The position numbers and the translations under genes are program-made. Under the pieces are notes generated by a model, which was given only the letters and a program-made list of their open reading frames with translations, searched no databases and was not told where the DNA came from. A DNA stretch of 64,000 nt from an uncultured Clostridia bacterium (GTDB lineage: Bacteria; Bacillota; Clostridia; UBA1381): the NCBI GenBank assembly GCA_934476675.1, contig CAKSOE010000007.1:1-64000 (forward strand). Direction: 5' to 3'. This document shows positions 30,317-46,663 of this stretch, in pieces (position 1 is the stretch's first letter; every line of letters starts with the position of its first letter).

Positions 30317-30392
30317 GCGCTATTAGCTCAGTTGGTAGAGCACCTGACTCTTAATCAGGGTGTCCGGGGTTCGAGCCCCCGATGGCGTACCA
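30317..30392 (+). tRNA. tRNA-Lys (anticodon CTT)
   Basis: GCGCTATTAGCTCAGTTGGTAGAGCACCTGACTCTTAATCAGGGTGTCCGGGGTTCGAGCCCCCGATGGCGTACCA: D-arm and T-arm as B. subtilis tRNA-Lys, anticodon loop CTCTTAA, encoded CCA; acceptor stem has two G-U wobbles. Confidence 0.8.
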
Positions 30393-30408
30393 TAACAATA
30401 TTAAACAA

Positions 30409-30444
30409 AACCTCCGAGTGTTTTATTACCTCGGGGGTTTTGCT
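30409..30444 (+). terminator. rho-independent terminator after tRNA-Lys
   Basis: cctccgag tgttttattac ctcggggg tttTgcttTg. Confidence 0.6.
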
Positions 30445-30544
30445 TTGTCTGCATTTTTATTACAAAGGTATTAATTATTTTAGCAATTCAAACATTAAAG
30501 CGAGCAGTTTGTGTATCACGTACACGCTGCCCGCTTATTTATTC

Positions 30545-30574
30545 GTCACAATATATCCCTCTATATATTGTGAC
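30545..30574. repeat. perfect 12-bp inverted repeat (GTCACAATATAT-ccctct-ATATATTGTGAC) near left end of element
   Basis: read directly; candidate recombinase/regulator site or hairpin. Confidence 0.4.
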
Positions 30575-30604
30575 AGCAATAATATATTTTAACACATAAT
30601 CGAC

Positions 30605-31546
30605 CTATTCATCATCGGAACGAATTTCTTTATTATGCCTGTTTTTGGGGTGTCTTTTTAAATAATCACGAAAATCATTTATTTCTTCGATGTTTTCCCT
30701 TTTAGAATATGCTGGATTATAGCCATAATCTAATAACCTTCTAATATATCTATCCTTTAATTTTAGCATTTGATTGTATTCGTACTCTAAACTGCCACTA
30801 TATTTGCAAGTGTACGCATTGTTTTCTGTCTCATTGTCTTTGATAGGCTCTTCTTTTGAAGTTTCTTCTCCCTTTAATATTCTAATCCTTTTTTTTGCTT
30901 TTTTTATACTTTGTTTTAAATGGTTAATGTGGTCATTTTGTTGATTAATGTAATCATTTTGTTGGCTAATGCGGTCATTCTGTTGACGGATTGTTTTGTT
31001 TAACTCATAAATTTTGTCATCACGCTGTTCAAGCAAATTATTTTGTTGCTCGACATATTCATGAAGTCCGCATATTTTTTTATCTTGTGTAAGTAGTTTG
31101 GTTTCACTTTCCTCTTTATTATGCACATACTTATTTTCTTTGAGTTTATGTTTAACACATGCAAAATTAGAACAAATCAGAAAAACTTCATATCTGCCTA
31201 TTTCAGTTATCCATGAATATTTTTCAAAATTATCAAATATAGGCAATAAGGCTTCCCATATTCCGCAACTGCGCCATCTATTAAACTTTCGGCGTAAAGA
31301 ATTAATATTAACTTTATTACATTCAGTAAAATCTTCTGAGTTATTCAGAATATAGATATTCTTTATTCCGTCATTTTCAAGCTTTCGCCAATGCAGCTGT
31401 GAATGATATGCTTGTTTCTCATGCAATAAATATAAAACTGCATTTATTAGCAATAGTTTTTCTTCGGTTTTGTTATTGTTATCTTCTGGCAACACTCTTG
31501 TGATTTGTTCCCATATTTCATCTTCAAAATTTACGTATTTGTACAT
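30605..31546 (-). CDS. hypothetical protein: transposase-type N-terminal HTH (DUF4096-like) + coiled-coil with heptad/7-aa QQND repeats
   Basis: Promoter TTGACT-17-TATACT at 31568-31596 and GAGGTGA RBS favour ATG at ~31546 (MYKYVNFEDEIW...); segment NINSLRRKFNRWRSCGIWEALL resembles the FRKW...G.WE motif of IS4/IS5 DUF4096 HTH; no DDE domain; C-terminal Lys/Glu-rich coiled coil. Confidence 0.5.
   Translation of the reverse strand: MYKYVNFEDEIWEQITRVLPEDNNNKTEEKLLLINAVLYLLHEKQAYHSQLHWRKLENDGIKNIYILNNSEDFTECNKVNINSLRRKFNRWRSCGIWEALLPIFDNFEKYSWITEIGRYEVFLICSNFACVKHKLKENKYVHNKEESETKLLTQDKKICGLHEYVEQQNNLLEQRDDKIYELNKTIRQQNDRISQQNDYINQQNDHINHLKQSIKKAKKRIRILKGEETSKEEPIKDNETENNAYTCKYSGSLEYEYNQMLKLKDRYIRRLLDYGYNPAYSKRENIEEINDFRDYLKRHPKNRHNKEIRSDDE
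30924..30986 (-). repeat. 3 x 21-nt tandem repeat inside CDS (encodes IxQQND(R/Y/H) units)
   Basis: ttaatgtggtcattttgttga / ttaatgtaatcattttgttgg / ctaatgcggtcattctgttga. Confidence 0.55.
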
Positions 31547-31567
31547 TGACTTTATCACCTCAATGCA

Positions 31568-31596
31568 AGTATACCTCATATATAATCAAAAGTCAA
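31568..31596 (-). promoter_or_regulatory. promoter (TTGACT-17-TATACT) for DUF4096-like gene
   Basis: minus-strand cttgact tttgattatatatgagg tatact read directly. Confidence 0.45.
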
Positions 31597-31847
31597 GACG
31601 TGTCCTATTTCAAATTCAATTTTTAAAAAAACCAATCCACCTAAAAAACATTTAGATATTACCTCTGGGAGTTAAAAACTCACCAATGTAAATACACGTG
31701 ATTTTCTCTCCCTAAAAAATAATTAACCCAAGGAGGTAGTACAAATGTGTACAGAGGTAATTTTAAGTACCGCGCAAGCAAAACAAATAGCTTATGATTG
31801 GTACGACATCATTGTAAAAACTATAACAGAAGAAGGAGAGATTGAAA

Positions 31848-32489
31848 ATGAAAAAACAGAAGCAAGTATTTTATAAGAGGAGTTTAGTACAAATGGCAAG
31901 AAAAATGAACGCCAAAAGGAAATGCGAAATTGAGGAGCAGTTAAAAGAGTTACAACAAATTCCGTTACAGCGCCGTTCAAACGGTGAATACATACCATTT
32001 AACTGCGATGACTTCGAGTTAAGAGAATGGTGCGGTAAATTCAACCGCAAACTTCGTAGGTGCAAGGAAGTTATAGAACACCCTATAAACCCGATAATAC
32101 AAACGCATTTGTCGCAATACTATCCGTATAGCAAATCGGACAAGTTATTGTGCGAGTGGTGCAGAAATAAAAATAAAGAAGTTCGTGCTAAAAGCTGTTC
32201 AGAGCCTGCACTCAAGCCGATACTTATATCAGACGGTAAGTATAGGTCAACTGATGAAAACGACGCATTGCTTGTAAAGTGGTGTAATAAATATAACGAC
32301 AAATTGCAAAAAAGCAAGAGCTTTGTTGTAATGCACACAGGCAGTAATGCCCGTCAGCCCCTTTGGTGTAGTAACGGTTATTTCAGTTGTGACGTCAAAG
32401 AAAGCCTGTTATGGAAGTGGTGTATAAAGCGCAACGCTGAAATAAATAAATTATTAGCAGAAAGGAGTGCTTTAAATGACAGAACGTAA
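31848..32489 (+). CDS. hypothetical protein with four W-C-x-K-x-N helical repeats, overlapping Rep start
   Basis: GAAGGAGAG RBS then ATG 31848 (track start is TTG); repeats ELREWCGKFNRKLRR / LLCEWCRNKNKEVR / LLVKWCNKYNDKLQK / LLWKWCIKRNAEINK; 14-nt overlap with Rep ORF; a 43-aa upstream ORF (31745-31876, strong AGGAGG RBS) overlaps its start. Confidence 0.5.
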   Translation: MKKQKQVFYKRSLVQMARKMNAKRKCEIEEQLKELQQIPLQRRSNGEYIPFNCDDFELREWCGKFNRKLRRCKEVIEHPINPIIQTHLSQYYPYSKSDKLLCEWCRNKNKEVRAKSCSEPALKPILISDGKYRSTDENDALLVKWCNKYNDKLQKSKSFVVMHTGSNARQPLWCSNGYFSCDVKESLLWKWCIKRNAEINKLLAERSALNDRT

Positions 32490-33342
32490 GTTGGAATTTT
32501 CAAGCGGTGAGTATTCGCCGCTTGATACAGACAGCAATTCAAAAATTATATTTTTGCCAGACAGCGCAGAAGTCGTAACAGCAAAAAATTCGGGCGGTTC
32601 AACAGCATTATCGGGTATCAAGCGTATTTCAAAGAACGAGTATGTAAAAGTCGAAACAGGCGAAGTATTCAAGTATAATACGAATGCTAACAAGACGGAT
32701 AATACTGTATCAATTAAGAAATCCTTGAACAATCTGCGTAAGCTGATACTGAATAATTTTGTAGAGTTTGAAAGCATTTTTATAACGCTTACCTACAAAG
32801 ATGAAATGTTTGACTTTACCCAAGCGGTTCAGGATTATACAAAGTTTTTTGAAAGCCTGAAAAAGCATTACAATCATTATAATCTTAAATATTTAAGAAT
32901 TATAGAGCCGACCGACAAAGGCAACTGGCATATTCATATGCTGCTAAAACCCGCTGAAAAGGCAGATAAATTTTATATCAGCCAAGAGACAGTTCAAAAC
33001 ATTTGGAAACATGGCTCTGTTAAGGTAGAGCAGATACATAATATAAAGGGATTGGCAAATTACTTTTGTACATACAGTAATGATGATAAAGCTTTACCCG
33101 AAAAGGCAAAGCCCAAGCACGTTAAAAAACAAGAGCGTTGGAAATACTACCCTTATCGTGCGAGGATTTTTGCAAAGTCAAATGATATAGTATATCCCAA
33201 AACGGTAAAAGCTAAGAGAGGACAGGTGGACGAGCTTCTAAAAGACTATAAAAGGGTTTCGGCAAGTACGCTGACTGTTAAGGACAGCGAAACAGGCAGA
33301 GTTGTGAATAAGGTAAATTATGAGCATTACAAAAAGCGGTAA
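32476..33342 (+). CDS. rep: rolling-circle replication initiator (HUH endonuclease Rep)
   Basis: AAAGGAG RBS + ATG; motif 1 FITLTY, motif 2 HUH = NWHIHMLL, motif 3 two-tyrosine YFCTY (YxxxY); 288 aa. Confidence 0.7.
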   Translation: MTERKLEFSSGEYSPLDTDSNSKIIFLPDSAEVVTAKNSGGSTALSGIKRISKNEYVKVETGEVFKYNTNANKTDNTVSIKKSLNNLRKLILNNFVEFESIFITLTYKDEMFDFTQAVQDYTKFFESLKKHYNHYNLKYLRIIEPTDKGNWHIHMLLKPAEKADKFYISQETVQNIWKHGSVKVEQIHNIKGLANYFCTYSNDDKALPEKAKPKHVKKQERWKYYPYRARIFAKSNDIVYPKTVKAKRGQVDELLKDYKRVSASTLTVKDSETGRVVNKVNYEHYKKR

Positions 33343-33588
33343 GCCATTCTATTTAATATATTATTATATAACTCAGTCATTTTACTAACCCCCCCTGCTG
33401 CATACCACAGCTGAATATGAGAGCGAACAAGCAAAAAATAAACTGGCGTATTCGTATGTCAGTTTATTTTTATATACGCATAATGCGCCGTTATTTTAGG
33501 TTATACGCAAGCTTAAAAGCAAAACGGTATTGCAATACTGTAACAACGCAAAGCAAGTGATAAAACAAAAGCTATTGGGTATTACGGC

Positions 33589-33900
33589 TTAGTTGCTTTC
33601 AAGACCCAACAATATATTTACAGCGTGTTGTAAATCAGTATGCTCATGATATGCTTGTATAAGCCTTTTATCATCAGCGCTTAATTCGTTATTATCAAGG
33701 TGAGTGTCAAGAAGCTCACTGGGTGATACGTTTAGGGCATTGCAAATATTAGAAAGCAAATCAACATCGGGTCGGTTTAGACCTTGCTCCCAGTTTGATA
33801 CACGTGAATTAGATACGCCGATTTTATGAGCAAGCTCTTTTTGTGACATATTGTTTTGCTTGCGAAATTTACTTATGCGCTTACCAATCTCATAACTCAT
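33589..33900 (-). CDS. XRE-family HTH repressor (cI-like)
   Basis: HTH_XRE signature MSQKELAHKIGVSNSRVSNWEQGLNRPDVDLLSNICNALNVSPSELL; AGGGAG RBS before ATG ~33900; divergent from cro-like gene. Confidence 0.75.
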   Translation of the reverse strand: MSYEIGKRISKFRKQNNMSQKELAHKIGVSNSRVSNWEQGLNRPDVDLLSNICNALNVSPSELLDTHLDNNELSADDKRLIQAYHEHTDLQHAVNILLGLESN

Positions 33901-33978
33901 TAACATCACTCCCTGCTTATATTATAGCAGAAAAACTTTAAAACGTCAATAAAAATTCAGAAAATATTGAAAAAAGTC

Positions 33979-34030
33979 TTGACATTACAGTTAAACTGAT
34001 ATATAATATTTATAAATACAGTTATGCTGT
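33979..34030 (+). promoter_or_regulatory. consensus promoter TTGACA-17-TATAAT with palindromic operators (ACAGTT half-sites) for cro-like gene
   Basis: cttgaca ttacagttaaactgata tataat; palindromes CAGTTaAACTG inside spacer and ACAGttatgCTGT at 34018-34030 just before RBS AAAGGAG. Confidence 0.55.
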
Positions 34031-34053
34031 AATTTAGAAAGGAGTGATACAGA

Positions 34054-34263
34054 ATGCACGTATATGAAAAGGTACGGGAATACATAACAAGTCATGGTAT
34101 AAAGCAAACGGTTATAGCAAGAAAATGCGGAATATCAACAGCGACATTCAATGCAATTTTAAACGGCAAGCGAACTATGTACGCTGACGATTTGAGAGCA
34201 ATATGCTTTGCGCTTGACGTTAGCCCTGAATTGTTTATTGAATTTCAAAAATTAAGCGCATGA
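34054..34263 (+). CDS. XRE-family HTH regulator (Cro-like)
   Basis: 69 aa; IKQTVIARKCGISTATFNAILNGKRTMYADDLRAICFALDVSPELF; RBS AAAGGAG. Confidence 0.7.
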   Translation: MHVYEKVREYITSHGIKQTVIARKCGISTATFNAILNGKRTMYADDLRAICFALDVSPELFIEFQKLSA

Positions 34264-34284
34264 TTATAAAGGAGTTTTTAGAAA

Positions 34285-34449
34285 ATGAAAGAATTTAAAG
34301 TAACATTTATGGTTGACGGCAAAAGAACCGAAGAATATGTAACGGCTAACGGGGGAAGCGACGCACGTAAAATTATAGAGAAGCGATTTGGTAATTGTAA
34401 AGTAGTGATTATCAATGTACAAGATATAACTAATGGTTTTTATTGCTGA
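34285..34449 (+). CDS. small hypothetical protein (54 aa)
   Basis: AAAGGAG RBS 8 nt upstream; MKEFKVTFMVDGKRTEEYVTANGGSDARKIIEKRFGNCKVVIINVQDITNGFYC; below ORF-track size cut-off. Confidence 0.4.
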   Translation: MKEFKVTFMVDGKRTEEYVTANGGSDARKIIEKRFGNCKVVIINVQDITNGFYC

Positions 34450-34527
34450 TAACTACGGTGCAAGATTAATATTACTAACCACTATGTTTTGAGTTTAGTT
34501 GGTACGTTATTAAAAAGATGAATATAA
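34443..34527 (+). repeat. direct repeat copy A (~85 nt; conserved core TTGCTGATA..TACGGTG..A.ATTAATATTAC ... TTGGT..GT.TTATTAAAAGA)
   Basis: aligned by eye to copy B at 35628-35712; core ~35 nt ~85% identical plus weaker 3' extension. Confidence 0.5.
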
Positions 34528-34555
34528 ATATAGAAAAGTAAGGGGAATTGAAATA

Positions 34556-35563
34556 ATGGATAATTATTGTACTAAATGCGGCAACAAGTTAGAACCAGGT
34601 CAAAAGGTTTGTGCCCGTTGCGGTAATCGAGTTAACGGAACTGTTTTAAATGATTTTGCTGATAAGATAAAAGCTTATGATTATAAAGGCAAAGCAGAGG
34701 AATTAAAAGTCAAAGCCAACGAGACCATGGATAAGGTCAAAAGTTATGATTATAAGGAAAAGACCGACAAAATTGCTGAAACAGTTAAAAATTATGCCGA
34801 TAAAGCAAAAGATGTTTCAGATACGATTATGACCTATGACTATAAGACAGAAAGTGAAAATATAAAGAAAGGCGGCATAAAGTATTTTTGGAATAGGCAT
34901 AAAAAATTGTCGGTATGTGTAGTGTGTTTTATTGCAGTAATTGGCATATTTACATGTGTTAACCACAAAAAAATTACTGTATCAGACAATGAACCAAAAC
35001 AAGAATATAATAGTAATGCGGTTGATGATAATAATAGTATCGTACAAAATAATCGCTTTACTTGTACGAGAACTGAATTTATAAAAAAATATGATGAATT
35101 ACATAACAAATTAGACGATAATCCATATTTAACGGATACTCTTGCTGATTGTAAATATTATACTAGTGAGCCTAATGCAAGTACTTTGGAAATGCAACCT
35201 AACGCATATAAAGAATATATATATGACACAACGTTATATTCATCAGATGATACAAGAGCAAAAAGCAGCGTGAATATTGCTGTCGATAAAAATGATAATG
35301 TGGTTCTTGTTTCGATTTTTAGATTCGGGCATGCGATACAAACAAAAGAAGCAAAACAACATTACATGTATGCAGATTGTACAGCAGCATATATGGCTGT
35401 AACAGGTACGACAAGTATTGATGCAGCCAAGGACGAATTATATGATGTATATTGCTCATCAAAAATAAGAAAAAGAGACAAATATGAGTATGGTTACAAT
35501 GAAAGAGATGATAAAAATGGTAGTTATGACACAGGTTTTTATATAAAAATTATAAATCAGTAA
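34556..35563 (+). CDS. hypothetical membrane protein: N-terminal zinc ribbon, YDYK amphipathic repeats, one TM, ~190-aa extracytoplasmic domain
   Basis: AAGGGGA RBS; YCTKCGNKLEPGQKVCARCGN zinc ribbon; KAYDYKGK / KSYDYKEK / MTYDYKTE repeats; TM LSVCVVCFIAVIGIFTCV; flanked by direct repeats A and B. Confidence 0.55.
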   Translation: MDNYCTKCGNKLEPGQKVCARCGNRVNGTVLNDFADKIKAYDYKGKAEELKVKANETMDKVKSYDYKEKTDKIAETVKNYADKAKDVSDTIMTYDYKTESENIKKGGIKYFWNRHKKLSVCVVCFIAVIGIFTCVNHKKITVSDNEPKQEYNSNAVDDNNSIVQNNRFTCTRTEFIKKYDELHNKLDDNPYLTDTLADCKYYTSEPNASTLEMQPNAYKEYIYDTTLYSSDDTRAKSSVNIAVDKNDNVVLVSIFRFGHAIQTKEAKQHYMYADCTAAYMAVTGTTSIDAAKDELYDVYCSSKIRKRDKYEYGYNERDDKNGSYDTGFYIKIINQ

Positions 35564-35627
35564 GTTAATTTAAAAACATGCTGGCTTAATTACGCTATGA
35601 AACATTTATTAGAAGATTTATAATTGC

Positions 35628-35712
35628 TGATATTAATTACGGTGTAGAATTAATATTACAAGAGGTATTATATCCAAGTTTAATTGGTGTGTATTATTAA
35701 AAGACAAAGATA
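35628..35712 (+). repeat. direct repeat copy B
   Basis: taattgctgatattaattacggtgtagaattaatattacaagaggtattatatccaagtttaattggtgtgtattattaaaagac; matches copy A. Confidence 0.5.
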
Positions 35713-35753
35713 CTATATACATTGTAAAACGCAGATTAATACAATAAATTAAG

Positions 35754-35782
35754 AAGTACCTTTTACATAAGAGGTACTTTTT
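35754..35782 (+). terminator. rho-independent terminator
   Basis: aagtacct-ttacataag-aggtactt + TTTT. Confidence 0.45.
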
Positions 35783-35810
35783 AATTCAGGAAAAAGCGAG
35801 GTGAGGGACA

Positions 35811-36023
35811 ATGAAAATATTATTTAACGAAAGCGGAGAAAGCAAAACTATAATGTCATATAGTGAGCAGGTAGAAGAAATGCTTAATACTTTGGAAACA
35901 GGCATAGCGGATATGAAACAGTCAAACGGTTTGTACGATTCAAGTATTTTTGTTTGTAAGTTAATCAATTTTAGAAACGGTATAGACGATTTAATTGATG
36001 ATTTAGCTTTTAATTGTATATGA
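35811..36023 (+). CDS. small acidic hypothetical protein (70 aa)
   Basis: GGTGAGGGA RBS; followed by clean terminator; MKILFNESGESKTIMSYSEQVEEMLNTLETGIADMKQSNGLYDSSIFVCKLINFRNGIDDLIDDLAFNCI. Confidence 0.45.
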   Translation: MKILFNESGESKTIMSYSEQVEEMLNTLETGIADMKQSNGLYDSSIFVCKLINFRNGIDDLIDDLAFNCI

Positions 36024-36037
36024 TAATCCTCCCCAAG

Positions 36038-36067
36038 ACAGCCGCCCGACAAGCGGCTGTTTTTTTG
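36038..36067 (+). terminator. rho-independent terminator
   Basis: acagccgc-ccgacaa-gcggctgt + TTTTTTTG. Confidence 0.65.
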
Positions 36068-36174
36068 CGTTTGTTTAAGTGTACTTTTATAAATACTGCA
36101 ATCGGCGGTGATTTTTAAAGATATTTGCGTTTTTAAAGATATATAAATAATTTATAAATATTTTTTAAAACAGG

Positions 36175-36203
36175 TTGACTTTTACAAAGAAATATCATAT
36201 AAT
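36175..36203 (+). promoter_or_regulatory. consensus promoter TTGACT-17-TATAAT upstream of recombinase genes
   Basis: ttgact tttacaaagaaatatca tataat read directly. Confidence 0.55.
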
Positions 36204-36240
36204 ATACGTGTAAGAAAAAAATAAAGGGAGCGTATGCAAT

Positions 36241-36867
36241 ATGAAAAATTTAATATTCGGATATGTTCGTGTTTCTAGTGCAGACCAAAACGAAGAACGG
36301 CAACTGCAAGACTTGAAAAATGCAGGAGTTGAAGAAAGAAACATTTTTATAGATAAAGCAAGCGGCAAAACCTTTGAGCGTGATAGCTATAAAGCTATGA
36401 TTAGCAGATTAAGAGAGGGCGATTTGGTTGTTATTGCTTCATTGGATAGACTGGGAAGAAGTTATATAGAAATTCAAAAGCAATGGAGCTATATTACGCA
36501 GACAATAAAAGCAGATATTAAAATTTTAGATATGCCGCTGCTTGATACAAGCACAGCTACTGAAAATATAGACAGACGATTTATAGCTGATTTGGTTTTA
36601 CAGATATTATGTTACACAGCAGAGAAAGAAAGAGAGAACATTCGCAAGCGACAGCGGCAAGGAATTGATGTAATGCCGATTGTTGACGGTCAAAGGGTAT
36701 CGACAAAAACAGGCAGACCGACAGGACGACCGAGAGCAGTTAAGCCCGACAACTGGAACGAAATATATACACGCTGGCAAAACAAAGAAATAACAGCCGT
36801 AAAGGCTATGGAGATTTTGAATTTAAAGCCGAATACTTTTTATAAATTTGCGGCAAGTGAGAAATAA
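36241..36867 (+). CDS. small serine recombinase (resolvase/invertase family, 208 aa)
   Basis: N-terminal resolvase catalytic domain (IFGYVRVSSADQNEERQ..; ..GDLVVIASLDRLGRS) + C-terminal HTH; ATG start. Confidence 0.8.
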   Translation: MKNLIFGYVRVSSADQNEERQLQDLKNAGVEERNIFIDKASGKTFERDSYKAMISRLREGDLVVIASLDRLGRSYIEIQKQWSYITQTIKADIKILDMPLLDTSTATENIDRRFIADLVLQILCYTAEKERENIRKRQRQGIDVMPIVDGQRVSTKTGRPTGRPRAVKPDNWNEIYTRWQNKEITAVKAMEILNLKPNTFYKFAASEK

Positions 36868-36895
36868 AAACTATGATATGTAAGGAGTAACAACT

Positions 36896-38422
36896 ATGTA
36901 TGCAGTAATATACGCACGATACAGCAGTGATAAACAACGTGAAGAATCTATTGAGGGGCAATTGGAAGTATGCCGTAAATATGCCGAAAGCAACGGTTAT
37001 GAAATTATTGATACATATATAGACCGTGCCAAAAGTGCAAAGACAGATGACCGCCCATATTTTTTAAAGATGATTAAGGACAGTGAAGAAAAACATTTTC
37101 AAGCTATAATTGTATATCAGCTTGATAGATTTTCACGCAACAGATATGATAGCGCAAAATATAAAACTATTTTAAAGAGAAATGGGGTTACGGTTTATTC
37201 GGCAAATGAAAATATTGCCGATAATGCAAGCGGAGTATTGCTTGAAAGCCTTATAGAAGGACTATCAGAATATTACAGTGCCGAATTAGCCGAGAAAGTT
37301 AATCGGGGTATGAATGTTAATGCTAAAAAATGTCTTTCAAACGGCGGCACTACCCCTCTTGGTTACAAGATAGAAAATCATAAATATGTTATAGATAAGC
37401 AAATGGCACCCGTTATAAAAGAAATATTTGAAAAATATGCCGACGGTGTAACAATAAAAGAAATTTGCGCCGATTTGAACGCCAGAGGTATTAAAAAGCC
37501 AAACGGAACTACATTTAATAAAAATTCATTTAGCGCTATATTAAAAAACAGAAAGTATTTAGGGATATACATATTTAGGGATATAGAAAAACCCGGTGGT
37601 ATGCCGCAAATAATTGATGAAGATTTATTCAATAAGGTTGCAGAAAGAATGAAAGCAAACAAATTAGCTCCCGCCCGAACAAGAGCAAAAGCCGAATATT
37701 TGCTTACGGGCAAGCTGTTTTGCGGCTACTGCAAAGAAATGATGATAGGACACAGTTCAAATAAAACGAGTAAGAATGGTATAATATATAATTATTATAA
37801 ATGCAAAAACAGTGGCAGAAGTAAATCGTGTCATAAGAAAATGGTGATGAAAGATTATATAGAGGACGCTGTCATTGATGAATGCCGTAAAATTCTTACA
37901 CCCTCAAATATAAAGAAAATAGCAAAGGAAGTATCGAAAATATCAAAAAATTATGATGATACCACTGAATTGAAAAGACTGGATATGTGTGTAAAAGCAA
38001 AAGAAGCTGAAATAGAAAATCAAATGAAGTCGCTTCGACTTTGTAGTGTTGATTCGGTACGTAACATGATTTTCAGCGATTTAGAAATTCTATCAAAAGA
38101 ATTGGAAAATTTAAAATTACAGCTTACCAAAGAGCAAAGTCGCCATAAAATTATAACTCCCGAACAGGTCGAAGCGTTTTTAACTGCCTTATCAAATGGA
38201 AATATAAATGATATAGTATATTGCAGAACGCTTATTAAAGTATTGGTAAATAAAATCTACTTGTATGATGATAAAGTCACGATAACATTTAATTCGGGCG
38301 ATGAAGAAGTGACAATCACCGACAAACTGCTCTCAAAAATAGAAACAGGATTAAATAGTGATTCAGTTTGTTTATTAAACCATGAGGTGTACCACGAAAC
38401 ACCGCATAAACACTACGTTTAA
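36896..38422 (+). CDS. large serine recombinase (508 aa)
   Basis: TAAGGAG RBS; MYAVIYARYSSDKQREESIEGQLE catalytic Ser motif, recombinase domain, Cys-rich zinc-ribbon region (CGYCKEMMIGHSS..YYKCKNSGRSKSCHKK), C-terminal coiled coil. Confidence 0.85.
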   Translation: MYAVIYARYSSDKQREESIEGQLEVCRKYAESNGYEIIDTYIDRAKSAKTDDRPYFLKMIKDSEEKHFQAIIVYQLDRFSRNRYDSAKYKTILKRNGVTVYSANENIADNASGVLLESLIEGLSEYYSAELAEKVNRGMNVNAKKCLSNGGTTPLGYKIENHKYVIDKQMAPVIKEIFEKYADGVTIKEICADLNARGIKKPNGTTFNKNSFSAILKNRKYLGIYIFRDIEKPGGMPQIIDEDLFNKVAERMKANKLAPARTRAKAEYLLTGKLFCGYCKEMMIGHSSNKTSKNGIIYNYYKCKNSGRSKSCHKKMVMKDYIEDAVIDECRKILTPSNIKKIAKEVSKISKNYDDTTELKRLDMCVKAKEAEIENQMKSLRLCSVDSVRNMIFSDLEILSKELENLKLQLTKEQSRHKIITPEQVEAFLTALSNGNINDIVYCRTLIKVLVNKIYLYDDKVTITFNSGDEEVTITDKLLSKIETGLNSDSVCLLNHEVYHETPHKHYV

Positions 38423-38462
38423 GCGGTGTTTTTATTTTTGTAAAAATCCTAAAATTTCACTT

Positions 38463-38510
38463 CTGACTATATTTTGACTATCAGAGCAAAAATTTTTGAC
38501 TATATTTTTG
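38463..38510. repeat. three direct TGACTATAT(T)TT repeats downstream of large serine recombinase gene
   Basis: ctgactatattttgactatcagagcaaaaatttttgactatatttttg. Confidence 0.4.
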
Positions 38511-38568
38511 CCATTAAAAATGCCTGTCGGAACGATGAATAAAAGATGAATATATTGCATAATAAACC

Positions 38569-38594
38569 GAGGGTGTAATTTGTGTTACACCCTC
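38569..38594. repeat. perfect 10-bp inverted repeat GAGGGTGTAA-tttgtg-TTACACCCTC near right end of element
   Basis: read directly; followed by T-rich tract (possible terminator or att-associated site). Confidence 0.4.
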
Positions 38595-38699
38595 AGCGTA
38601 TCATTTACTTTTTTGTGGCAGCAGGTTTTTTATATTTTTTAGGATAATACTTTTTAATTATTTCCTCTTTGGCATAATCCCCTGCATCTTTATTACTTA

Positions 38700-38945
38700 C
38701 TATGTGCGGATTACTTCAAGAAATTTTATGTAATCCTCCGCCGTTGATACGCAGCCGTCTTCGCCGCTTTCATACTTTGTACCTATTCTGAATACATTGT
38801 CCTTTGTACATTCCTCAACCTTATCGGTTTCGAGATTATATTTATGGTGATTAACAAGCTTATTTGTTTCATCAATCAGAAAAACTGAATTTTCCATTCC
38901 GCACACGTCAAAAATGTTCTTTTTTGACAACTGCAGAAACTGCAT
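38700..38945 (-). CDS. orphan 81-aa ORF, possibly a gene fragment at element/chromosome junction
   Basis: ATG but no RBS; no recognisable domain; sits where AT-rich island ends; low confidence. Confidence 0.2.
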   Translation of the reverse strand: MQFLQLSKKNIFDVCGMENSVFLIDETNKLVNHHKYNLETDKVEECTKDNVFRIGTKYESGEDGCVSTAEDYIKFLEVIRT

Positions 38946-39033: not shown

Positions 39034-39516
39034 ATGCAGGAATGTCGGACAGGCGGCATGAGGGAATTTATTTTTTCCGTCATATGGTCGGTATTGATTT
39101 TGTTTTTCGGAAGATACATCATTTTTATGCTTCCTGCGTACAAAATAGCCGGCGCGATTTTTACCGTCATACTTTTCTGCATACTCGGCTTTTTCGTACT
39201 CACAAGGTATGCCGCCGTTTTTACATACACGCTTAAAGGCTATAATCTCAGAATCAACCGCAGAATAGGCGGCAGAAACAAGGAGCTTGAAATAAAACTG
39301 TCCGAGGCTGAAAGCATTTACAAACACAAGCCGCACGTGCATTTAAAGCGGCGCTGTATATATATGATGTGCTCGAGTGTTTTTTTGTGCAAAAAACGCA
39401 GATATATCGTGTACCGACACGGCAGTATACACGGAATGATAGTATTTGAACCATCCGGGGAAATGTTTCGTAAAATCAATGAGCTTATGCAGGGGGCACA
39501 AACAGATAAGGAGTAA
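39034..39516 (+). CDS. membrane protein (two N-terminal TM helices + small cytoplasmic domain; YcxB-like architecture)
   Basis: GGAGGT RBS; FIFSVIWSVLILFFGRYIIFML and IAGAIFTVILFCILGFFVL helices; 7 nt upstream of ricT. Confidence 0.5.
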   Translation: MQECRTGGMREFIFSVIWSVLILFFGRYIIFMLPAYKIAGAIFTVILFCILGFFVLTRYAAVFTYTLKGYNLRINRRIGGRNKELEIKLSEAESIYKHKPHVHLKRRCIYMMCSSVFLCKKRRYIVYRHGSIHGMIVFEPSGEMFRKINELMQGAQTDKE

Positions 39517-44989: not shown

Positions 44990-45010
44990 ATTCATATAAT
45001 AGAATATGTA

Positions 45011-45058
45011 CGGCTGCTGCCTTTTTTGAACATTAACCGAAAGTGCAGCAGCTTTTTA
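45011..45058 (+). terminator. rho-independent terminator
   Basis: cggctgctgc-cttttttgaacattaaccgaaagt-gcagcagc + TTTTTAT. Confidence 0.55.
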
Positions 45059-45095
45059 TATGTGACGTTTTTGGCGTAGAAACGGGGGATTTTAT

Positions 45096-45248
45096 ATGGA
45101 AGCCTGCCCGAATGTTGTCGCGATAGCTGCACTCAGCTGTCAGCTTGCGCAATGCCTTACCGATGAGGAGCTTGAAATGCTTGCCGCCGATTTGACTGTG
45201 CTGGCAGACTCTCTCGCCGCAATTGCGGTACGCCGAGCTGCCAAATAG
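45096..45248 (+). CDS. small GC-rich ORF (50 aa), hypothetical
   Basis: GGGGGA RBS; MEACPNVVAIAALSCQLAQCLTDEELEMLAADLTVLADSLAAIAVRRAAK; GC-rich island in AT-rich spacer; speculative. Confidence 0.3.
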   Translation: MEACPNVVAIAALSCQLAQCLTDEELEMLAADLTVLADSLAAIAVRRAAK

Positions 45249-45310
45249 TTTTTTTGTAAATTCATGTCGAATTATTGCATACGATTTTTTTTATTTTTTC
45301 TTGTAATATC

Positions 45311-45339
45311 TTGACACAAAAACAGTTTTATTGTAAAAT
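45311..45339 (+). promoter_or_regulatory. promoter TTGACA-17-TAAAAT
   Basis: ttgaca caaaaacagttttattg taaaat. Confidence 0.45.
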
Positions 45340-45425
45340 AAACGTACAGAAACGAACATTTAAATGAAATGTTACAATTTTGGAATATACATATAACAAA
45401 AATGAATGGTTGGAGGAAAAATTTC

Positions 45426-45557
45426 ATGCTCATCGATGAATTAACAAAAGAATTTAATGAACTCCTTAAGGAAAAAAACTTTAATTATTCAAATCCCGAT
45501 GTGGTTGAAAAGGGACTTGAATTAGAAAAGGAAATGTTTAAAAATTTCCAAAATTAA
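45426..45557 (+). CDS. small acidic protein (43 aa), hypothetical
   Basis: GGAGG RBS + ATG (track's longer 62-aa version lacks RBS); MLIDELTKEFNELLKEKNFNYSNPDVVEKGLELEKEMFKNFQN; own promoter and terminator. Confidence 0.35.
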   Translation: MLIDELTKEFNELLKEKNFNYSNPDVVEKGLELEKEMFKNFQN

Positions 45558-45573
45558 CACACATTTACAACTA

Positions 45574-45610
45574 AAAAGGATATTGCGGATTAAATCGCAA
45601 TATCCTTTTT
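45574..45610. terminator. bidirectional hairpin terminator between small ORF (+) and galM (-)
   Basis: aaaaaggatattgcg-gattaaat-cgcaatatccttttt. Confidence 0.6.
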
Positions 45611-45619
45611 CAATGTGCT

Positions 45620-46663
45620 TTATTTAACGCTGAATCTGTATTCCGTGGTATGGTCGTAGACAGCATTCTTTTTAAGTACCGGAGACGGGAAGTGCGTAAA
45701 TTTCGCCGCATTCGGGAAAGCCTGTGTCTCTAAGCAGAAGCCGTGGTGATTTGCATATTTTGCTCCGTTTTTGCCTGTATTCTCATTGTCTATATTAGTG
45801 GTATAAAGCTGTACTCCCGGCTGATTTGTATATGTTTCCATAACGATTCCGTTTGCCGGATTTTCCGCAACTGCGCAAAGTCTGTAACCCTCGCCCGCAA
45901 CGGCAAAATTATGGTCATAGCCGCCGAACATCTCAGTCTGCTCAAAATCAGCATCAATATCGTCGCCTATCTGCTTTGCCTCCCTAAAATCAAACGGTGT
46001 TCCGTCAACTTTAAGCACTTCGCCGTTCGGTATACATTCGTCCGTATTCGGCGTATAAAACTGCGAATTTAATTTAAGCAGCTGATTTGTCATCTTAGCT
46101 CCGTCATGACCGTTAAGATTGAAATAGCTGTGGTTTGTCATGTTGCATATTGTATCTTCGTCGCATTTTGCCTTATAATTAATCATAAGAGCATTTTTTG
46201 AGGTAAGCGTATATGTAACCGTAACATCAATAGTTCCCGGAAAACCCTCCTCGCCGTCCGGTGAGGTTAAGGATAGTACCAGAGACGGTTCTGCACCGTC
46301 CTCTGCAATTACATCCCACACTCTCTTACTGAAACCGCCCTCACCTCCGTGAAGATTGTTTCTGCCGTCATTCGGCTCAAGCTTATACGTTTTTCCGTTA
46401 AGCACAAATTCCGAGTTCGCTATTCTGTTGGAATTTCTTCCCACCAGCGCGCCGTAATAGCCTCTTTTGTTTTCATATTCTTCCAGGGTATCGTAACCCA
46501 TAACCACATCAACTGTCTTGCCGTTTCTATCCTTTACGCACAGTGTCCTTACCACACCGCCATAGCTTAGAATTTCTGCACTTATTTCGCCGTTTTCAAG
46601 CTTATAAGCAAAAACCTTTTCGCCGCTTTTTGCCGTTCCGAATTCTCTCTTTATAATTGACAT
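45620..46663 (-). CDS. galM: aldose 1-epimerase (galactose mutarotase)
   Basis: GGAGG RBS + ATG at ~46663 (MSIIKREFGTAKSGEKV...); mutarotase motifs (..HGG..GF..., GYDHNF, HHGFCLETQ); track start 46738 is an upstream in-frame extension. Confidence 0.85.
   Translation of the reverse strand: MSIIKREFGTAKSGEKVFAYKLENGEISAEILSYGGVVRTLCVKDRNGKTVDVVMGYDTLEEYENKRGYYGALVGRNSNRIANSEFVLNGKTYKLEPNDGRNNLHGGEGGFSKRVWDVIAEDGAEPSLVLSLTSPDGEEGFPGTIDVTVTYTLTSKNALMINYKAKCDEDTICNMTNHSYFNLNGHDGAKMTNQLLKLNSQFYTPNTDECIPNGEVLKVDGTPFDFREAKQIGDDIDADFEQTEMFGGYDHNFAVAGEGYRLCAVAENPANGIVMETYTNQPGVQLYTTNIDNENTGKNGAKYANHHGFCLETQAFPNAAKFTHFPSPVLKKNAVYDHTTEYRFSVK

Follow-up and report, generated by a model that had tools for sequence, protein, structure and literature searches.

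A discrete 8,002-bp element at a tRNA-Lys gene of uncultured gut Clostridia, probably a non-autonomous integrative rolling-circle plasmid

Several groups of small integrating elements have parts in common with the one described here, an 8,002-bp insertion beside a tRNA-Lys gene in an uncultured Clostridia bacterium (assembly GCA_934476675.1, contig CAKSOE010000007.1). The window analysed is the first 64,000 nucleotides of this contig, forward strand, and coordinates are positions in it unless another contig is named. Tn4451 and Tn4453, found in Clostridium, are small, non-conjugative elements with a circular intermediate, cargo genes, the large serine recombinase TnpX and the resolvase-like TnpY; the relaxase of Tn4451, TnpZ, is of the Mob/Pre type, a Rep and a regulatory switch are lacking, and insertion occurs at many GA-containing sites. 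The actinomycete integrative elements (AICEs), of 9-17 kb, reside in tRNA genes, excise, replicate using a rolling-circle Rep and re-integrate; they have a tyrosine integrase with Xis, and an FtsK-like Tra for self-transfer. Satellites of the SaPI/phage-inducible chromosomal island (PICI) and PICMI types are small and helper-dependent, and carry an integrase, a divergent repressor pair and a replication module.

Among integrative mobilizable elements (IMEs), there are precedents in which a rolling-circle replication (RCR) initiator, regarded as a putative relaxase, is the only mobilisation protein, some of these also lack a coupling protein, and the integrative and conjugative element (ICE) ICEBs1 mobilises plasmids that have only a Rep (PMC5357655, PMC5704250). 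Tn4451/Tn4453 is listed as a serine-integrase IME (PMC5704250), and the serine integrases of streptococcal IMEs insert within genes and disrupt them (PMC5357655). Use of tRNA genes was recorded for 14 of 297 serine-integrase islands in a survey of 2,168 genomes, where it was called previously unreported and in need of proof (PMC7192596). The AICEs meant here are those of the pSAM2 type (PMC2440964).

The ends of the element were set using occupied and empty sites. Public assemblies were searched with the exact sequence of a flanking Crp-like protein, which gave L001, L002, L003 and L004 (L-numbers denote comparison loci or contigs). The element is present in L001 and L004 and absent from L002 and L003, and the surrounding DNA is otherwise 99.8-100 % identical. 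The window and L002 are 99.99 % identical across 10.8 kb to the left of the site and 99.8 % identical across 9.1 kb to its right, and the sole difference is a clean 8,002-bp gap. Identity stops at 30392, the last base of the tRNA CCA, and restarts at 38389, with a common core at both junctions; the element therefore occupies 30393-38394. The copy in L001 is 100 % identical to that in the window. Hence, this is a discrete site-specific integrative element at tRNA-Lys, and both alleles are found in the same population. As both flanks consist of ordinary chromosomal housekeeping genes that are contiguous in the empty-site contigs, the element does not belong to a larger phage or ICE.

A preliminary description of this DNA, made from the sequence alone, had already proposed a discrete integrative element beside tRNA-Lys, as the two alleles confirm, and had suggested the empty-site comparison that now defines the attachment (att) junctions. 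It had also said that full phage or ICE modules just outside the window would make the element part of a larger one; the flanks of the element are the housekeeping genes mentioned above. The limits it gave, 30440-38700, miss the left end by 47 bp and the right end by approximately 306 bp. The drop in G+C content that it noted is real (33.4 % for the element, 44 % for the remainder of the window). However, the terminator after which the drop was said to begin (30407-30441) is element DNA, and 38395-38700, ending where recovery was placed (near 38.7 kb), is AT-rich host intergenic DNA. Two small ORFs that adjoin the right side of the element, 38700-38945 (-) and 39034-39516 (+), lack any recorded Pfam family. 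Both also occur in the empty-site contigs and are host genes outside the island. A second short dip in G+C content (0.31) was seen at 45000-45750, about 7 kb to the right.

The core, GTACCA, is present once at each junction and as a single copy in attB (all features are listed in Table 1). The attP site rebuilt from the left part of attR and the right part of attL reads …GTTTGTTTATTAAACCATGAGGTGTACCATAACAATATTAAACAAAAC…, and the circle-form junction is predicted to carry …CATGAGGTGTACCATAACAATATTAAAC…. Its arms, GTTTGTTTATTAAAC and (reverse complement) GTTTTGTTTAATAT, are imperfect inverted repeats that span approximately 48 bp end to end, with a simple gapless dyad score on the arms that is not decisive. 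The centre of attP mimics the 3' end of the tRNA (GGTGTACCA compared with GGCGTACCA, positions 68-76 of tRNA-Lys). The core is 6 bp here and 9 bp in L018. A short core (2-12 bp), dissimilar attP and attB and imperfect dyad arms make up the att format of large serine integrases, and all are found here. The gene for the large serine recombinase (LSR) spans attR: codons up to 38394 are element DNA, and the last 9 codons and the stop are host DNA. Accordingly, attP sits within the LSR reading frame, at its own 3' end. Integration leaves the tRNA intact, and the hairpin at the left end of the element takes over from the tRNA's own, displaced terminator. In the circular form, the same hairpin would terminate the integrase gene.

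Two further strong hairpins, 30500-30534 and 30545-30574, lie between this terminator and the orfA stop codon, and one of them is a perfect 12-bp inverted repeat (GTCACAATATAT…ATATATTGTGAC). They are possibly an orfA terminator or a single-strand origin. The 212-nt region 30393-30604 as a whole has a single-stranded DNA (ssDNA) fold z of -6.9, and only its terminator is conserved; alignment with the relatives showed no conservation of the hairpins in 30500-30574.

The choice of target was used to decide which recombinase is the integrase. In a sister lineage, L013/L016 (LSR 71 % and Rep 53 % identical to those of the window), the element is at tRNA-Lys(TTT) and the attP core is TCACCA instead of GTACCA, matching the tRNA-Lys(TTT) end GGCTCACCA. 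L017 has a tyrosine integrase in place of the LSR and sits at tRNA-Met, while its small serine recombinase is still 83 % identical. Because target choice follows the terminal integrase in these loci, the LSR, and not the small recombinase, is identified by comparative sequence as the integrase of the element. Both a small resolvase-type and a large serine recombinase are present, as had been described, but they are not a tandem pair, as the small one is retained in L017 where the LSR is not. The reverse assignment, in which the small recombinase is the tRNA-site integrase and the LSR has another role, would have a model in phiRSM, where enzymes of this type integrate at a tRNA-Ser 3' end (PMC4471427). 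It could also draw on how very rarely large serine integrases use tRNA genes (14/297; PMC7192596) and on the small recombinase being the most conserved protein of the family. However, attP is in the 3' end of the LSR gene, the core (GTACCA or TCACCA) covaries with the LSR lineage, the tyrosine integrase of L017 has gone to tRNA-Met with the small recombinase unchanged, and the closest relatives of the small recombinase are plasmid resolvases. We regard this assignment as very unlikely.

The 90 %-identity cluster that includes the LSR contains at least nine different host-encoded tails after …CLLNHEVY, and therefore at least nine different right flanks are represented. In L018, a 98 %-identical backbone stands behind another tRNA-Lys(CTT), with flanks unrelated to those in the window. 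Given these flanks, the element has been recently and repeatedly mobile and has spread horizontally. We regard the LSR lineage as a rare and well-supported example of large serine integrases aimed at tRNA 3' ends, in which the target has also shifted between tRNA-Lys isoacceptors. The nearest named relatives of the LSR are integrases of gut Firmicutes phages, such as Roseburia phage Shimadzu (40 %). The closest relatives in the databases (42-45 %) are in 4-13-kb scaffolds labelled 'Bacteriophage sp.', without annotation, that come from a Mexican human faecal virome (MT837820.1, MT837257.1 and others); these scaffolds were rejected as relatives of the element, as they have nothing in common with it except the LSR.

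The position of attP inside the integrase gene raises a further point. The predicted circle-form integrase is 525-526 aa long with the tail NNI(K/R)QNLRV(F/C)YYLGGFA…, whose length is constant and whose sequence hardly varies among the window, L018, L016 and L013, whereas integrated copies end in 1 to ~60 arbitrary host residues. In L016 (15131-16831), the integrated ORF runs approximately 60 codons into host DNA and encodes 566 aa, compared with 525 aa for the circle form. Because attP lies inside the gene, there could be two integrase isoforms, one with the conserved tail and one with host tails, with the physical state of the element setting the preference for integration or excision. We consider this doubtful. 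If the native tail does modulate activity, stability or directionality, this would be an integration-dependent serine-integrase switch, analogous to the integration-dependent immunity of mycobacteriophages. The conserved tail also overlaps the attP arm and the terminator, and constraint at the DNA level may explain its conservation; inspection of the sequences revealed no clear synonymous bias in the tail substitutions between lineages.

Relatives of the element are few. Only 35 clusters of Rep homologues were found among 5.8 billion proteins, all from uncultured gut Clostridia. Four loci were recovered from 185,579 species-representative genomes, all in metagenome-assembled genomes (MAGs) of uncultured Clostridia from Hadza gut samples, and three from JGI metagenomes. 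IMG/VR contained no relatives of Rep and no copy of the conserved 27-mer that follows rep, and megablast searches of phage and plasmid collections, with the entire element as query, returned no match. The gene order in the family is orfA (-), a gene for a 39-43-aa peptide or an Xis/HTH_17 gene, orfB, rep, the XRE gene (-), cro, a variable slot, orf70, the small recombinase and the integrase. This backbone is kept across members with Rep proteins only 44-54 % identical, and the elements form a small, previously undescribed family with a fixed backbone.

Two other loci contain related modules. The MAG that includes L018 has a second Rep and XRE module (Rep 85 % identical) in contig CAKSFT010000002.1 (L014/L019, 1144-20881). 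It is within a composite island at tRNA-Lys(TTT), together with a tyrosine-integrase element, a BlaR1-like gene and a DUF4368-type LSR, and the island looks like a tandem accretion. L021 (7630-14285) is a distant member (Rep 44 %) beside tRNA-Leu/tRNA-Met, with a Tn916-Xis-type gene and S-layer homology (SLH) and lipoprotein cargo. It lacks the end made up of orf70, the resolvase and the integrase, and has an oppositely oriented DUF4368-type LSR in its place.

The Rep protein belongs to PF23343 (REP_ORF2-G2P; E=1.5e-18), and the FITLTY, HIHMLL (H152-I-H154) and YFCTY (Y196) motifs, from which an HUH Rep had been recognized, are invariant in 10 sequences. The relatives found using tblastn are the replication genes of 1.5-2.7-kb Firmicutes plasmids that carry little else, namely pBAW301 of Ruminococcus flavefaciens (1,768 bp), pYA01-2 of Caldicellulosiruptor (1,547 bp) and pLF23/2 of S. 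epidermidis (2,091 bp). Circles from the rumen plasmidome also carry relatives. In the small plasmids, the Rep relative is the sole replication gene. Judged by these relatives, Rep is a plasmid-type initiator and evidently sufficient for autonomous replication. It has no match among PDB sequences. A 27-mer beside the gene is conserved at 23-27 of 27 positions in L013, L017, L020 and L021, where Rep is 44-54 % identical; it is unique in the window (0 copies expected by chance), is not shared with the origins of the distant plasmid relatives, and is a candidate for the Rep nick region. The upstream gene, orfB, is presumed to encode a Rep accessory protein. Its predicted fold (pLDDT 86.7) consists of four beta-hairpin plus helix repeats, and no relative of the predicted structure was found in PDB or BFVD.

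The name of the Pfam family refers to plectrovirus and inovirus initiators, Rep is weakly similar (28-30 %) to Microviridae VP4-like proteins, and in phiRSM phages a Rep of this kind occurs together with a small serine recombinase and integration at a tRNA 3' end (PMC4471427). These features would suit an integrated ssDNA phage, of the inovirus, plectrovirus or microvirus lineages, that is degraded or cryptic after loss of its morphogenesis genes. However, the element has no Zot/pI-type ATPase or P-loop, no small transmembrane (TM) coat protein and no capsid gene, and a gene-poor backbone kept at 44-54 % Rep identity, together with recent mobility, is not the pattern of decay. The probability of a phage origin of this kind is accordingly rated as very low.

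The regulatory region is the one previously recognized as a divergent XRE/Cro pair with promoter and operators. Back-to-back promoters and two operators lie between the genes, and this architecture and the operator half-sites are conserved in six relatives. Several perfect TTGACA-17-TATAAT promoters had been reported. There is only one, the rightward promoter of the switch; the leftward promoter and that of the recombinase genes match at 11 of 12 positions. These three are kept in relatives with Rep 44-54 % identical, and promoter-like sites overall are modestly in excess of the shuffle expectation (58 compared with 40.3 +/- 6.5). The XRE repressor is 67-98 % identical across the family. It has no peptidase (autocleavage) domain, and induction would therefore need an anti-repressor or another signal.

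The best PDB relatives of the small recombinase are Sin/Bin3 (5e-24), and it is 50-53 % identical to the products of 'res' genes carried by Bacillus-group plasmids. No other backbone protein is as well conserved as this one, which is 82-86 % identical in L013, L016 and L017. The simplest role for such an enzyme would be resolution of multimers of the excised replicon. In the alignment of four family members, the region upstream of its gene contains the invariant block GTTTAAGTGTACTTT and short 8-9-mer repeats, TTT[T/G/A]TAAA (36073-36171), in which the variable base differs between lineages, with both copies changing together. This pattern points to a co-evolving protein-binding site, and we infer that 36070-36203 is a candidate res or autoregulatory site. 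An invertible segment was also considered as a substrate for this recombinase, as orf70 is flanked by AT-rich inverted repeats (I1, I13). It was rejected because the orientation of orf70 does not differ between loci and a search for further copies of the upstream block found none beyond chance.

Three candidates for a recombination directionality factor were compared, orf43, orf54 and orf70. Only the orf43 position changes to an Xis-type helix-turn-helix (HTH) gene in the relative with a tyrosine integrase (one clear case, L017). This position is occupied by an HTH_17/Tn916-Xis-type gene in both L017 and L021, and orf43 is the best candidate for the factor here. Orthologues of orf70 are found in L013, L016 and L017, the last with its tyrosine integrase. 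The orfA product is suspected to be a DNA-binding regulator; its match to the DUF4096-type HTH (E=3.8e-05) is under the curated cut-off and is followed by a coiled coil with QQND-I heptads. Orthologues are at the same position in L013, L016, L018 and L020. Only two clusters of homologues were found, and tblastn of phages and plasmids gave no match. Three 21-bp tandem repeats in the gene (30918-30988) encode the heptads.

Table 1. Features of the element and its junctions. Functions of binding, nick and res sites are those proposed from conservation.
Feature	Position	Strand	Basis or remarks
Host tRNA-Lys(CTT)	30317-30392	+	ARAGORN, Rfam
attL core GTACCA	30387-30392	+	Last 6 nt of tRNA (positions 71-76); empty-site comparison
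Left end of element (arm and terminator hairpin)	30393-30441	+	Missing from empty site
attP-derived left arm, ATATTAAACAAAAC	30398-30411	+	Missing from empty site
Element-borne terminator hairpin	30407-30441	+	Strong fold; kept in L013, L016, L020
orfA, 313 aa	30605-31546	-	324 aa if start is 31579; weak DUF4096-type HTH, then coiled coil
orf43, peptide gene (39-43 aa)	31745-31876	+	Kept in LSR-bearing L013, L016
orfB	31848-32489	+	Backbone; end overlaps rep start; W-C-x-K-x-N motif
rep, HUH rolling-circle initiator	32476-33342	+	PF23343; phrog_3419
Candidate double-strand origin/Rep nick region, 27-mer TCTATTTAATATATTATTATATAACTC	33348-33374	+	5 nt after rep stop
XRE-family repressor, 106 aa	33589-33909	-	HTH_3, E=2.8e-18
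Switch region	33910-34053	.	Between XRE gene and cro
Leftward promoter	33949-33921	-	11/12 match
Rightward promoter	33979-34007	+	TTGACA-17-TATAAT
Predicted operator TACAG-N5-CTG(T/A)	33986-34000		In rightward promoter spacer
Predicted operator TACAG-N5-CTG(T/A)	34017-34031		Over rightward transcription start
cro, Cro-like HTH, 69 aa	34054-34263	+	HTH_26, E=8.4e-11; first gene of rightward operon
Variable cargo slot	34264-35746	+	Flanks ~98 % identical in L011, L018, L022; slot content unrelated
orf54	34285-34449	+	
orf335	34556-35563	+	
Terminator hairpin	35747-35786	+	Right-hand boundary of cassette exchange; conserved
orf70	35811-36023	+	Backbone
Terminator after orf70	36035-36063		
Recombinase operon control region	36070-36203	+	Alignment of four family members
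Invariant block	36073-36087	+	
Recombinase promoter TTGACT-17-TATAAT	36175-36203	+	
Small serine recombinase, 208 aa	36241-36867	+	Sin/Tn552-Bin3-like, HTH_7; PF00239, E=2.9e-25
LSR (integrase), 508 aa as integrated	36896-38422	+	Resolvase+Recombinase+Zn_ribbon_recom; phrog_95, E=1.4e-110
attR	38366-38394	+	Empty-site comparison
attR arm, attP-derived	38366-38380	+	
attR core GTACCA	38389-38394	+	
Native terminator of tRNA	38397-38439		Displaced

The variable slot begins at the cro stop codon and a shared ribosome-binding site (RBS). In the window, it carries orf54 and orf335, and the latter is predicted to encode a cytoplasmic Zn ribbon, YDYK repeats, one TM helix and an extracytoplasmic domain of approximately 175 aa. 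Elsewhere, this C-terminal domain follows lipoprotein signals or TM anchors. In relatives, the slot encodes other Zn-ribbon/TM proteins, SLH-domain and GLUG-like proteins and a lipoprotein. To judge from these comparisons, the slot holds interchangeable envelope-protein genes, which appear to be transcribed with cro. Cargo proteins from the window and the relatives had no match to a defence model or a known fold. Among the genes previously listed as cargo, with possible defence roles, 34556-35563 is indeed part of the cargo (34285-35563), but it appears to encode an envelope protein; 30605-31546, 31848-32489 and 35811-36023 are the conserved backbone genes orfA, orfB and orf70. Direct repeats of 26 bp (85 % identical) at 34450-34475 and 35634-35659 bracket orf335. 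They are found only in loci with this type of cargo (L001, L012) and not at the cassette boundaries of other members. Site-specific cassette exchange was rejected; homologous exchange is simpler, because the repeats are specific to one cargo type and the boundaries coincide with the conserved RBS and terminator.

As the slot always encodes membrane, lipoprotein or SLH-anchored proteins, in an operon switched on with Cro, and no other transfer function is visible, an independent route of spread can be imagined, in which the element is vesicle-borne or resembles a pleomorphic plasmid-virus and the membrane or SLH protein is an attachment or fusion factor. However, the cargo proteins are mutually unrelated on near-identical backbones, which fits accessory or exclusion genes better, none has a fold match to a fusion or spike protein, and the hosts are presumed to be walled Clostridia. 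We find this route scarcely credible.

Pfam, PHROGs, NCBIfam and PADLOC searches of the element proteins revealed no virion, packaging, conjugation/type IV secretion system (T4SS), canonical relaxase or defence genes, in agreement with the absences noted in the preliminary description for phage structural, terminase, conjugation and relaxase genes. In a six-frame scan, no ORF of >=25 aa contained a Walker A motif, and the 335-aa cargo protein was the only TM protein. The PHROGs matches were limited to replication, regulator and integrase families. NCBIfam and PADLOC returned nothing for the proteins without an assigned function, and a single chance-level PADLOC match (BrxA, 0.0027) was to Rep; by these searches, the element is not a recognizable defence island. 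Nor is it a recognizable prophage, as no capsid or coat, morphogenesis or packaging gene, P-loop ATPase or small TM coat candidate was found. The lack of a mating-pore module (no T4SS/VirB4 match and no Walker A motif) is what is expected of an IME.

A phage satellite had been offered earlier as an alternative. A helper would lift the XRE repression, the element would excise, its concatemers would be packaged in helper capsids and the envelope cargo would block superinfection. With a terminal integrase, a divergently transcribed repressor/Cro pair and replication genes, the layout is that of PICIs and minimal marine satellites, and the 8-kb size is suitable. The repressor, lacking an autocleavage domain, would need an external inducer, the nearest named relatives of the LSR are from gut Firmicutes phages (Roseburia phage Shimadzu, 40 %), and variable surface-protein cassettes resemble superinfection-exclusion loci. 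However, there was no match to terS, to cpm/ppi-like or other capsid-remodelling genes, to pac/cos or to a PHROG structural or packaging family; neither Rep relatives nor the 27-mer were found in IMG/VR; the relatives of Rep are plasmid and not phage genes; and no helper was identified. On balance, a satellite is unlikely.

The reading that best fits is a non-autonomous integrative rolling-circle plasmid of 8,002 bp that is IME-like, and we put its probability at roughly 70 %. This agrees with the 'minimal integrative rolling-circle replicon' first suggested. In the cycle proposed, the LSR would recombine the ~48-bp attP with the tRNA-Lys end, crossing over within GTACCA, to leave an intact tRNA, an element-borne terminator and an integrase with its C-terminal tail swapped for host residues. 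The XRE repressor would keep the Cro-type rightward operon, including the envelope cassette, off. Derepression would lead to excision, probably with a small directionality factor, for which orf43 is the best candidate. Rep would then nick the 27-mer beside its gene for rolling-circle copying, and the Sin-like recombinase would resolve multimers at the site upstream of its own gene. Because the element has no NTPase, transfer or packaging gene, its spread must be by hitch-hiking, most likely through a conjugative element in the same cell that mobilises it, with Rep serving as relaxase. Transduction of rolling-circle concatemers is a second candidate.

Several points weigh against this reading. 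The use of Rep as a relaxase and the presence of a helper in the host are suppositions. The exact circle-form integrase (525-526 aa) is not present in a collection of 15 billion proteins, the attP junction was not found in JGI metagenomes, and no excised circle was seen. A rep-proximal single-strand origin was rejected, as 33343-33588 folds no better than shuffled sequence (z=-0.99 and +1.3). Conservation is the basis for the assignment of the origin, the res site, the operators and the directionality factor, and orfA and orfB, which have no assignable function, could hide a transfer function. Finally, co-transcription of the cargo with cro is unusual for genes expected to benefit the host in quiescence.

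We note that the locus is a clean natural case of an LSR at a tRNA gene, with exact attB, attP, attL and attR sites, both alleles, many independent insertions and a sister lineage retargeted to another isoacceptor with a matching change in attP. The LSR and its ~48-bp attP use a conserved site without disrupting it, and could be used to insert DNA into gut Clostridia that resist manipulation. The family also illustrates the modular exchange of a serine for a tyrosine integrase on a fixed backbone. As a minimal chassis for integration, excision and replication that would shuttle envelope genes between species, it is relevant to the spread of surface variation in the gut microbiome.

Compared with known systems, the element is most like the Firmicutes IMEs (PMC5357655, PMC5704250), which are also small and integrated, with an outward-facing integrase at one end, an RCR-initiator-family protein, variable cargo and no T4SS. 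However, the serine integrases of those IMEs disrupt protein genes, whereas this LSR uses a tRNA 3' end without disruption. The Rep family, PF23343, may correspond to their PHA00330 class (putatively), and the backbone here includes a lambda-type switch and a Sin-like resolvase. The RCR plasmids pBAW301, pYA01-2 and pLF23/2 share the Rep family (27-34 % identity over 70-85 % of the protein), but they are free, lack an integrase, switch or cargo, and do not share the 27-mer. Like Tn4451, this is a small clostridial LSR element with a resolvase-like gene and cargo; unlike Tn4451, it has a Rep, a switch and one tRNA site. The phiRSM phages (PMC4471427) have a G2P-type Rep, a serine-family recombinase, a repressor, tRNA-end integration and a similar size (~9 kb). 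However, they have full inovirus morphogenesis and coat genes, of which the element has none, and their integrase is the small recombinase instead of the LSR. The AICEs differ in their tyrosine integrase with Xis and their FtsK-like Tra, and SaPI/PICI and PICMI satellites in their packaging or capsid-redirection genes, none of which was found here; the initiator of the element is of the plasmid type. The element is built from known modules with known logic and is not categorically new. Its unusual features are an LSR lineage that uses tRNA 3' ends, with attP inside its own gene, and a cassette system for envelope genes.

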